Shown in pieces: positions 21,001-24,000 of a stretch of DNA of 60,781 nucleotides. Made by a program: the position numbers. The stretch comes from an uncultured Haloferula sp. (lineage in GTDB: Bacteria; Verrucomicrobiota; Verrucomicrobiia; Verrucomicrobiales; Akkermansiaceae). The stretch's first letter is position 1. Each line of letters begins with the position of its first letter. The stretch lies in contig CBFGTS010000021.1 of assembly GCA_965652295.1 (NCBI GenBank), positions 1 to 60,781 on the forward strand. Direction: 5' to 3'.

Positions 21001-24000
21001 GAACCTCCCGCTGCATGGCGACGGTCACGCCCGGACTTCCGCAGGACAGGCTGCGTCACGGGGAGCCCCGGCGTAAAGCACCGCCTTTCACGGAGCCCAG
21101 CAGAGACCGGCGATGGCGGCGCTCATGAGGTTCGAGAAGGTTCCCGCCATCACCGCCAGCAGGCCGAGGCGCGCGATCTCCGCCCGCCTCGCCGGAGCCA
21201 TCCCACCGAGACCGCCGAGCAGGATCGCGATCGAGGAAAAATTCGCGAAGCCGCAGAGGGCCACCGTCACAATCGCCCGCGTCCGGCCGCTCATCGCCTC
21301 CCGCCATTCGGCGAACTGGACGTAAGCGACGAACTCGTTGAGGACGAGCTTCTGACCGATCAACGAGCCTCCTTGGCCCGCCTCTCGCCACGGAATGCCG
21401 ATCAGCCACGCCACCGGCGAAAACACCCACCCGAGGAACGCCTCCAGGCTCCAGCCCTCCTGCCCGAACCAGCCACCGACGCCGCCCAGCATCAGGTTGA
21501 GCAGCGCGATGAGCCCGATGAAGGCGAGCAACATCGCCCCCACGTTGAGCGCGAGCTTCATGCCCTCCGACGCGCCCGCCGCGGCCGCATCGAAGACGTT
21601 CGCCGGCCGCTCCTCGCTCCAGTCCAGCGTCACCTCCTCCGGCTGTCCGGTTTCCGGCACCAGGAGCTTGGCGAAGAGCAGCCCGCCCGGCGCGGCCATG
21701 AACGACCCCGCCAGCAGGTGTTTCAGCTCCGCTCCGAGCCCCGCATAACCCGCCAGCACCGAGCCCGCCACGCTCGCCAAACCTCCGCACATCACCGCAA
21801 ACAGCTCCGAGCGGGTCATCCGGCTGATGTAAGGTTTCACCACCAGCGGGGCTTCCGTCTGACCCACGAAAATGTTCGCCGCCGCGCTCAGCGACTCCGC
21901 CCGGCTGGTGCCGAGGAGTTTCCGCAAGCCTCCGCCCAGCACCGCGATCACCGCCTGCATGATCCGCAGATGGTAGAGCACCGCGATCAGCGAGGAGAAA
22001 AAGATGATCACCGGCAGCACCCGGAAGGCGAAGATGAAACCAAGCCCCTCGCCTGTGGCCAGCGGGCCGAAGAGAAACGCGATCCCCTGCTGTCCCCCCG
22101 CGATCACCGTCGCCACCCGATCCGACAGCCACTCCAGCGTCGTCCGTCCCCATGGCACGCGGAAAACCATCACCCCGATCGCCAGCTGCAGCGCGAACGC
22201 CAGCCCCACCGTCCGCCAGCGGATCGAACCCCGGGCCCGCGACGCCGCCCACGCAACCCCTAACAGCATCAGAATCCCCAGAACGGCCATGATGACGCGG
22301 TCTAGCGGATCCCGGGCCATCCCGCCAGAATCGAGTTTCCCTGCACACGTCCTGCGCGTCATCGTCGCCACGTGATCCGCGCCCTGCTCCTCGACGCCGC
22401 CGGCACGCTCATCGAGCTCGCCGAGCCGGTCGGTTCCACCTACGCCCGGATCCTCCGCGGGCATGGCATCGATCTCGCACCGGCCGATCTCGAGCAGGGA
22501 TTCCGCCGCGCCTTCGCCACCCTGCCGGAGCCGGATTTCACCGCCACCCCGGAAGGCGACGCCGCCGAGCGGGCATGGTGGCGTCAGCTCGTGAACGCCG
22601 CCGCGCGTCAAACGATCGCTGCGGAGGCCTTCGATGCGCTCTTCCGGCACTACGCCCGACCCGAGGCGTGGCGGGTTTTTCCCGAGGTCCCGCAGGTTCT
22701 GGAATCCGCCCACGCCGCCGGCCTGAAGCTCGCCGTCGTCTCCAATTTCGACCTGCGCCTCCACGGCATCCTCTCCGGTCTCGGACTCGCGTCCTCCTTC
22801 GATGCCATCATTTCCTCCGCCGACGCCCGTGCGCGAAAGCCCGCGCCCGCCATCTTCCACCACGCGCTCGACCGGCTCGGCGTCGGACCCGAAGAAGCGC
22901 TCCACGCCGGCGACTCCGTCCCGCTCGACTTCGAGGCCGCCACCGCCGCCGGTCTCCGCGCCGTCCACATTGACCGCCCTCGCACCACCCTCCGTGTTCT
23001 CCTTCCCCATCTGCCCACCGCCCCGCGTTCGTAGTGCGGCCTTCGACCGGCTCCCTCTCCGAATTCCGTCAGACAAAAAAGGTTTGCCAAACCTCGTCTG
23101 CCTCCCTACCCCCTCGGCCCCGCCCTTGCGGCCGGCCAAAGCGCGGATAGCTCAGTTGGTAGAGCACTCGGCTTTTAACCGATTGGTCCCGGGTTCGAGT
23201 CCCGGTCCGCGTACTTCCTCTCTTTGGAGGCAGGAAGCTTCCAGCCCAGGGTGCCTCACCCTTATGGACCGGGACTTGAACCCGGGAAGGGTTCGAATGC
23301 GGCCGTCGTCCGTGACGACGATCACTCCCACAAGCGCAGCGAGCCAAACTGGCATGGACGGAGCGAAGCGGAGTCAACCCCGGTCCGCGTACTTTCTCTC
23401 TTTGGAAGCGAGAAGCTTCCATGCCGCCTCGCCTTGCCCTCGTGGACCGGGAGGAGAAGCCGGAAGGGTTTGAATGCTCTCCGTCGTCCATGACGACGAT
23501 TCCTTCCTCGCGAGCGGAGCGAGCCAAACCGGCATGGACGCAGCGCAGCGGAGTCAATCCCGGTCCGCGTACTTTCTCTTTTTGAGAGTTCGAACCTTCC
23601 AGCACAGGCCGTCTCACCCTTATGAACCGGGACGAGAATGCTCTCCGACCCTCGTTGAGGGCGATTCCGACTATCCGAACGAAGTAAGGCTGATCCGCGT
23701 GGACGAAGCGCAGCGGAGTCCCCCCCGAAAAGCGGCGAATCCGACCAAACCCCTCCCCTGCTTTCTGCGTCGCAAAAAAAGTCTCCGATTCTGAAAACCA
23801 GCCCGGAAAGCTTCGATTGAGAGAATATAAGCAAGTCCGTTTGAGATTTTCAGAGTGATCGGTCGGGGGACCGGTTCTCGGATTCAGGTGAAAGCCGATC
23901 TTGCGGACCGCAAAAACAAGAGCGCGCGATTCCGGGGGGACTCGCGCGCTCTGTTTTTCCGCCCGGAGGGAAAGGAACGGCCCCGCTCTCTGGGGGGAGA

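Follow-up and report, generated by a model that had tools for sequence, protein, structure and literature searches.

The tandem units that follow the tRNA-Lys(UUU) gene in the window (the whole stretch of DNA analyzed, 60,781 nucleotides from a contig of an uncultured Haloferula sp.) belong, judging from sequence, very probably to the family of tRNA-linked repeats (TLRs, also RtT) of Escherichia coli. They are new members of a family already known and unexplained. TLRs have been recorded in E. coli since 1978 and their function is unexplained, according to the accessible part of PMC8144298, the extent to which that paper is cited throughout; older works (Egan and Landy 1978, Rudd 1999, Bosl and Kersten) are cited through it. 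A TLR is defined there by its place in an operon of tRNA or rRNA genes, immediately behind a gene, and 22 units at ten loci are counted in strain K-12, with a 3′ identity of 18-19 bp to the upstream gene (PMC8144298). As to their nature, the preferred reading, at about even odds, is that of small non-autonomous mobile elements, which would act as folded single-stranded DNA of the sense (non-template) strand of the tRNA gene.

The array consists of the following features, where R denotes the portion of the host that runs from its T stem to its 3′ end and R1 a covariance model described below.

Upstream of the tRNA gene: HAD hydrolase gene
23141-23213/14, + strand: host tRNA-Lys(UUU), without genomic CCA (ARAGORN; Rfam RF00005, 71.2 bits)
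23189-23193/23201-23205, + strand: T stem of the tRNA, with the T loop at 23194-23200 (from the sequence)
23201..23378, + strand: period 1, 178 bp (self-comparison, TRF, and an R1 match at 23263-23390 that is itself a training row of R1)
23266..23287, + strand: 22-nt segment with 95% complementarity to 23187-23208, repeating the T arm and 3′ strand of the host in inverted form (anti-R, anti-L)
23289..23296, + strand: internal copy of the 5′ strand of the T stem together with the first bases of the T loop (GGGTTCGA), by which helix 2 is closed
23357..23375, + strand: terminal arm 4 of unit 1, GAC-GNA-GC-GNA-GC-GNA-GTC, with a GNA triloop and opposed GNA triplets
23379..23391, + strand: first direct copy of the tRNA 3′ end, from the T-loop/T-stem border
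23379..23558, + strand: period 2, 180 bp (anti-R at 23441-23452, arm 4 at 23537-23555)
23559..23571, + strand: second direct copy of the tRNA 3′ end
23559..23725, + strand: unit 3, degenerate, with helix 2 deleted and arm 4 at 23702-23720, then no tRNA copy

In-register copies begin at 23201, 23379 and 23559, spaced by 178 and 180 bp and 71-76% identical in self-comparison, and TRF reports a period of 180 with a score of 536. The three tandem units of the preliminary description are thereby confirmed. Units 1 and 2 close with GAC-GNA-GC-GNA-GC-GGA-GTC and then the copy of the tRNA 3′ end, in agreement with the claim that each unit ends in such a copy; the claim is wrong for unit 3, because it stops at the motif with no tRNA copy (a partial R1 match, E 0.002, covers 23636-23720). 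The full 19-letter end motif occurs three times in the 4.37 Mb genome, always in this array. A terminator scan of 23000-24100 found none, and an Rfam search at E ≤ 10 over 22900-24600 placed the tRNA alone above the cut-off, with 10 further matches below it.

Three features by which TLRs are recognized in E. coli are found again here. The units lie directly downstream of a tRNA gene, the intact ones carry 13-19-nt copies of its 3′ end (18-19 in E. coli TLRs), and they are homologous to K-12 units by model R1. This model comprises 34 Verrucomicrobiota rows, 6 of which came from a pattern written after tyrT had been seen. Against the whole K-12 chromosome it gives three matches at E ≤ 1, all of them serX TLRs (best E 3.5e-5); with filters off on eight chosen K-12 loci, four tyrT/V units (E 1.6e-6 to 2e-4) and proK (0.037) are also matched, while the lys, arg and rrn units at these loci give no useful scores. 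The kinship with tyrT units, which had been proposed earlier, is thus borne out by the end motif, the internal architecture and the covariance-model matches. Indeed, the tyrT/tyrV units show the same order of parts, namely an anti-3′ end, GAGAA, a hairpin, GGTTCGA, further arms, the end motif and the 3′ copy, and so do serX, proK and lysV-type units; several K-12 lys and arg units are shorter and have no helix 2. E. coli TLRs are likewise tandem and on the same strand behind the tRNA, with the GAGCGNAGCG end and a 3′ copy from the T-loop border. Unlike them, the present units belong to another phylum and score below the RF00391 cut-off, TTTGA is commoner than TTCGA, arm 3 is branched and arm 4 is longer.

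The Rfam model RF00391 (RtT) gives 18 matches to E. coli units, 13 of them above the cut-off. On the present genome its best match is the Ser(CGA) unit with 18 bits (E 1.3), short of the cut-off of 45 bits, and no match falls inside the window. The earlier statement that there is no Rfam family is therefore correct for the window and incorrect for the family, as RF00391 covers the E. coli units.

Further units are present in the same genome. A 3′-end copy within 900 nt accompanies 5 of 47 ARAGORN tRNA calls, namely Lys, Ser(CGA), Ser(GCU), Asp and Pro(CGG), which are exactly the hosts already named. The copies measure 13-19 nt at Lys units 1-2, Ser(GCU), Asp and Pro, and the Ser(CGA) copy has one mismatch. 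That host list is nevertheless incomplete, having overlooked two degenerate units with decayed 3′-end copies, one behind Ser(UGA) (C1:474645-474870) and one behind Leu (C2:214774-214919). Model R1 returns eight matches at E ≤ 1 in this genome, and all eight lie behind tRNA genes (two of them are training rows).

Beyond this genome, a scan for the end motif produced 84 distinct matches. Of these, 61 follow a tRNA on the same strand by no more than 700 nt, and 42 carry an exact copy of 12 nt or longer, by a script that undercounts hosts with a GAGT loop; several of the remaining 23 are at contig edges or behind islands. A scan for the internal motif produced at least 143 distinct matches; among the matches listed, 104 follow a tRNA or tmRNA by no more than 700 nt, 68 have a 3′ copy of at least 10 nt and 67 an anti-R of at least 6 nt. 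The counts given before (38 of 61 downstream of a tRNA, 24 re-creating its 3′ end) were not reproduced as such, the corresponding figures being 61 of 84 and, among the matches listed, 104 of 143. Complete units occur in records labeled Gammaproteobacteria, Verrucomicrobiota, Poribacteria, Prosthecochloris (L095) and Eggerthellaceae. R1 matches were obtained in 28 of 41 relatives, from which some training rows may stem, and in a draw of genomes from the phylum, under stricter criteria, at least 9 of 101 match at E ≤ 0.001 (32 candidates scored per genome). Five loci labeled Bacteroidota (L024, L054, L070, L072, L059) have the terminal arm, without the GAGAA/GGTTYGA core and with degenerate 3′-end copies. 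The claim of a cross-phylum family is consequently supported by shared internal architecture, except that its Bacteroidota link is weak and consists mostly of the terminal arm. PMC8144298, in its accessible part, deals with Enterobacterales only, and in the literature covered, which excludes subscription papers, no TLR paper outside Enterobacterales was found, nor anything on a cross-phylum range, a role as single-stranded DNA or a link to GIY-YIG proteins. The inverted copy described below, or the wider range, may already have been noted in Rudd 1999 or in the supplements of PMC8144298.

The anatomy of a unit follows a fixed plan. One period reads R, leader hairpin, anti-R, GA, anti-L, loop, L, arm 3, arm 4; in period 1 this corresponds to the tRNA 3′ end, leader hairpins, the inverted T-arm copy, helix 2, the branched arm 3 and the terminal arm 4. 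The inverted, host-specific copy of the tRNA T arm and 3′ end, absent from the preliminary description, pairs at 23266-23287 with the terminal copy in both DNA and RNA folds. A single period can adopt either a four-way junction or, together with the T arm of its host, a long hairpin. The predicted fold of unit 1 is only modestly better than that of shuffled sequences (z −1.6 for DNA, −1.75 for RNA). When one period is folded as a circle, the R/anti-R arm forms with RNA parameters in both periods and with DNA parameters in period 2 only, and the circular DNA folds of the two periods did not give a clean four-arm form.

Both host-derived arms match the tRNA gene upstream. Anti-R matches its own host over at least 8 nt in 38 of 78 units, as against 2.6% for other hosts. 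Where the downstream copy has diverged (n = 17), anti-R is closer to the tRNA in 5 units and to the copy in 1, with 11 ties. Helix 1 shows compensatory changes in 4 of 9 pairs, and 87.9% of its cells are paired, compared with 29-45% in slid controls. At the junction, where the T loop of the host ends in GAGT, the units end in CAAT or CAAC; the T loop is not duplicated, and copying begins at the T-loop/T-stem border.

These observations bear on the simplest explanation, by which the units would be neutral slippage duplicates of tRNA trailers that converged across phyla, or assembly artefacts. Stable GNA hairpins do recur in many repeats, and contigs break at these loci. On the other hand, the units differ from one another by 24-29%, a congener assembled as a single contig (G003) bears a two-unit array at the same tRNA, and the ordered multi-motif architecture and the genome-wide specificity of R1 also speak against it. 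Together with the compensatory changes in helix 1, the G003 array and the R1 specificity largely refute this explanation, which is now very improbable.

How the units are passed on was approached through 36 congener units, a set reduced from 46 rows by leaving out rows outside the genus and a false tRNA-Leu call in L235. Core identity is 0.748 for units of the same genome behind different tRNAs (24 pairs), 0.685 for the same tRNA in different genomes (68 pairs) and 0.633 for neither (538 pairs). Label permutations reached the observed values in 0 of 2000 trials for genome and 2 of 2000 for tRNA, although kin are independent neither here nor in any other count; as the tRNA labels also carry signal, much of the inheritance is vertical. 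Cores 95% identical are found at Ser(CGA) and Ser(GCU), with perfect anti-copies of 13 and 12 nt to ends showing 4 differences in 13 places, and cores 84-86% alike at Leu or Ser and Pro genes, with 7 differences in 13 between the ends. Such a pattern would result from movement between tRNA genes in which each target dictates the arms; a slow gene conversion of cores among long-occupied loci could yield the same core similarities. Spread between tRNA genes is the probable course.

Presence of the units is patchy, and they are decaying among congeners. At congener tRNA-Lys loci, 5 of 29 have a full unit and 2 a partial one, which does not reproduce the earlier count of 6 in 16 as such, and none of 15 loci whose tRNA ends in GTCCTCGTA carries a unit (one of these has a flank of 72 nt only). 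Contigs from 4 of 19 listed runs were compared with the array. One of them skips 183 bp (depth 2), a gap that starts inside unit 2 and may be a graph artefact; another skips 346 bp with unknown letters between. Of the two skips reported before, that of 183 bp is therefore seen again, and that of 359 bp is not. No circle or fresh insertion was seen in these contigs, which give thin evidence of altered copy number. The description as mobile or amplifying can be kept for amplification, given the tandem arrays, and is supported indirectly for mobility by congener patchiness and core similarity, with neither an enzyme nor a new insertion found.

A signature that bears on the choice between DNA and RNA is the type of hairpin loop. 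Among 111 distinct cores, stems of at least 4 Watson-Crick bp close 103 cGNAg triloops, compared with 2.5 in shuffles, whereas the bottom-strand form of the triloop occurs 0 times, GNRA 5 times (2.4 in shuffles) and UUCG 0 times. After removal of the 41 cGNAg triloops that equal the searched word, 62 of 162 triloops remain. The genomic background is about fifty times lower, with 38 cGNAg triloops in 200 kb of genome against 103 in 11.2 kb of cores. In DNA, GNA triplets that face each other form a zipper. Extraordinary stability as DNA minihairpins is ascribed to GNA triloops in the title of Yoshizawa 1997 and in PMC6094131. This loop type, confined to the sense strand, leans toward a role at the DNA level, and a function of the units as DNA is slightly favored; the strand bias alone is indecisive, because the sense strand corresponds to the transcript as well as to the non-template DNA. 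The comparison with RNA is a weak one, with 0 cGNAg and 3 GNRA loops over 1300 nt from the end of rrnD in E. coli and neither type in the organism's own tmRNA; its own rRNA gave no blastn match. A strand-bias test by mismatch type showed no bias over all pairs (44 G.T, 37 A.C) and was set aside.

The RNA reading takes the units as a structured trailer that is co-transcribed and cut at its tRNA-like 3′ end, with the facing motifs UGAGAA and UUYGA binding tRNA or protein, and gene conversion keeping the copies alike. UGAGAA and UUYGA resemble T-loop motifs, which occur face to face in the elbow clamps of RNase P and T-boxes. Several observations agree with such a trailer. The units, found by motif scans, always lie in sense orientation behind the gene; helix 2 varies solely through 36 cells of G.U type, as in an RNA helix; the RNA fold of unit 1 is a multi-arm form; ARAGORN at a relaxed threshold calls one unit a tRNA (L235); and rttR of E. 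coli carries a small-RNA annotation. It has also been reported that TLRs of rRNA operons are transcribed, processed and bound by Hfq and CsrA in vitro (PMC8144298). The same paper records, however, that the early amino-acid-starvation phenotype of rtT was retracted and that 19 tRNA-linked TLRs scored below 0.01 for CsrA (PMC8144298). Loops of cGNAg rather than GNRA or UUCG type, the patchy presence and decay among congeners, and the position of many units behind a strong leader hairpin likewise speak against a trailer RNA, as does, weakly, one RNA run (contigs only) that covers the tRNA alone at the tRNA-Lys locus; the RNA runs contain 0.05-0.06 of the words, which is evidence for neither expression nor silence. 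The trailer RNA is thus a possible reading and a doubtful one.

If the units are instead mobile as folded strands, the following course can be proposed. The strand would fold while single-stranded, during transcription or replication, and its inverted copy would capture a tRNA gene by the T arm. Next, a nuclease provided in trans and specific for the structure would nick at the T-loop/T-stem border, and repair synthesis would copy the 3′ end of the target, giving new direct and inverted arms and leaving the tRNA intact. Recombination between copies of R would add or remove units.

The longest open reading frame downstream of 100 of the 111 unit loci includes no HUH, transposase or reverse transcriptase family and a single integrase, a search in which genes of 80 aa can be missed because only the longest frame was considered. 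The caveat that no mobilizing enzyme had been identified accordingly holds, no neighbor enzyme recurring at these 100 loci. GIY-YIG genes of 80 aa (PF01541), whose nearest solved structures are UPF0213 and Slx1, were found inside units at L068 and L018, and also at L267 and L311. Their cassettes bear similar GNA-zipper hairpins, and some, among these four loci, end like a TLR. Slx1 cleaves branched DNA, as stated in the accessible part of PMC1564403. Non-seed GIY-YIG relatives lie directly behind a tRNA or tmRNA in 10 of 11 cases, two of which terminate with the 3′ end of the host copied, and among matches in the relatives 10 of 27 lie behind a called tRNA or tmRNA, the one at L311 ending like a TLR. 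GIY-YIG relatives are nevertheless present at 5 places among 261 loci and absent from the tRNA-Lys array and most TLR loci. No co-occurrence with TLRs was seen at the genome level (10 of 28 TLR-positive and 3 of 13 TLR-negative genomes), and E. coli K-12 has one weak match, distant from its TLRs. The tRNA-linked GIY-YIG genes may represent an independent element that shares the address of TLRs and forms chimeras. The Slx1-like cassette is a weak candidate for the helper, and naming a Slx1/UPF0213-like GIY-YIG protein as the nuclease is a guess with a low chance of being right. The full scheme, in which TLRs would be cross-phylum miniature mobile elements of an undescribed mechanism, their folded strand capturing the T arm, an Slx1-like GIY-YIG enzyme nicking the T-loop border, both arms being rewritten per target and GIY-YIG-bearing units being autonomous, is likewise unlikely as a whole.

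A tyrosine recombinase of the host or of an island could move the units instead, which would then be minimal att-site cassettes or relics of integrase-coding islands that use the T arm, possibly acting on a folded strand like attC or the CTX phage. The duplicated tRNA 3′ end and the symmetry of the T arm are att-like, the folded unit re-creates a double-stranded T-arm site, and folded single-strand substrates are known for integron integrases and XerCD (PMC4792948, accessible part). The junction argues otherwise: the T loop is not duplicated in TLRs, in contrast to a prophage site that precedes a TLR (L219) and repeats the whole T arm. A tyrosine recombinase would presumably need the folded bottom strand, and the loops favor the top strand. 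One integrase among 100 neighbors, and none inside or at the end of an element, is equally little in its favor. Islands inserted in tRNA genes displace the TLR downstream rather than ending in it (L018, L026, L070, L072), and of 13 viral matches the 5 inspected comprise three host TLRs past a prophage end, one fragment of a tyr-type repeat and one chance match in a gene. An origin as island end or phage attP is rejected on these grounds, and the wider att-cassette explanation is improbable.

Should TLRs be elements of single-stranded DNA whose arms are adjusted to every target, this would account for a kind of repeat that follows tRNA genes in several phyla, a possibly new mode of site-specific, gene-sparing insertion would be at hand, and RtT would have been filed as RNA for what may be a by-product. 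Should they be RNA, they would form a widespread unannotated RNA family, missed by the Rfam model outside enterobacteria. The anatomy of the unit makes the TLR question, which dates from 1978, directly testable in E. coli K-12.

Among known systems, integrase islands at T-loop sites of tRNA genes resemble TLRs in restoring the tRNA and leaving a displaced 3′ fragment. They repeat the whole T loop and encode an integrase, and TLRs do neither. The identity block of integrase att sites spans the 7-nt T loop (7-bp rule); such a block is absent from the units, whose copy starts at the loop/stem border. REP/REPIN and the non-autonomous derivatives of IS200/IS605 depend on HUH enzymes and single-stranded DNA, and are, like TLRs, small, hairpin-rich, strand-biased and helper-dependent. 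TLRs differ from them in being fixed to tRNA T arms, in duplicating 13-19 nt of the target and in having no RAYT or TnpA among the 100 downstream frames. Integron attC sites and the attP of CTX phage have in common with the proposed behavior of TLRs a single strand that folds into a double-stranded site, tandem accumulation and an enzyme acting in trans (PMC4792948, accessible part). TLRs depart from these sites by their tRNA T-arm target, their host-specific arms and the lack of a linked integrase; their strand-specific cGNAg loops point toward a folded-strand substrate, as in attC and CTX attP.

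Besides the RtT-type repeats, the genome holds a second class of tRNA-linked unit, which carries a small gene of the GIY-YIG family (PF01541). It lies at a tRNA-Met(CAU) gene at the end of contig C3 and runs on into contig C9 as a tandem 317-bp unit, with the following location and parts:

C3:314109-314231, continuing into C9:1-400: tRNA-Met(CAU) and tandem 317-bp unit
Part: GIY-YIG gene of 81 aa
Part: hairpin replacing the anticodon arm
Part: copy of the tRNA 3′ half

The same build is found at three further loci (L315, L325, and L332). The other tRNA-Met gene of the genome is directly followed by a short GIY-YIG remnant (C2:259979-259899, minus strand). 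Hairpin repeats of the type that opens GIY-YIG cassettes in other genomes are also present here without the gene, behind C13:114924 (minus strand) and inside the tRNA-Ser(UGA) unit (C1:474800-474840).

The units behind tRNA-Lys and tRNA-Leu are tied to one subfamily by a contig of sequencing run X3, from a related strain, which matches window positions 23525-23561 and in which a Lys-like unit end is fused to a tRNA-Leu 3′ end. About 190 nt past the Lys array, a strong inverted repeat (window 23913-23958) is flanked by A-rich and T-rich sequence and is possibly a two-way terminator, though the terminator scan made no call there. No convincing gene lies in window 23730-24780. The sequence at window 24340-24420 could not be assigned; it looks like the degraded remains of a region that is tmRNA-like or related to reverse transcriptases.

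At C1:474645-475300, the tRNA-Ser(UGA) unit has behind it an ORF that resembles, by eye, a type I restriction methyltransferase subunit, which suggests an island at this tRNA gene. The tRNA-Asn 3′ half at C7:85039 recurs 18.7 kb downstream, at C7:103728, and the stretch between them is likely an integrated island.

Another repeat, with the core GAGCGAAGCGAG, occurs in four scattered copies, none adjoining a tRNA gene:

C6:16808, repeat copy
C9:179697, repeat copy
C9:188602, repeat copy
C18:2368, repeat copy

GIY-YIG genes without a tRNA link occur at four loci (L313, L314, L323, and L326), where a conserved palindromic repeat lies on their flanks, with an apparent integrase gene nearby. These genes are possibly related to integrons.
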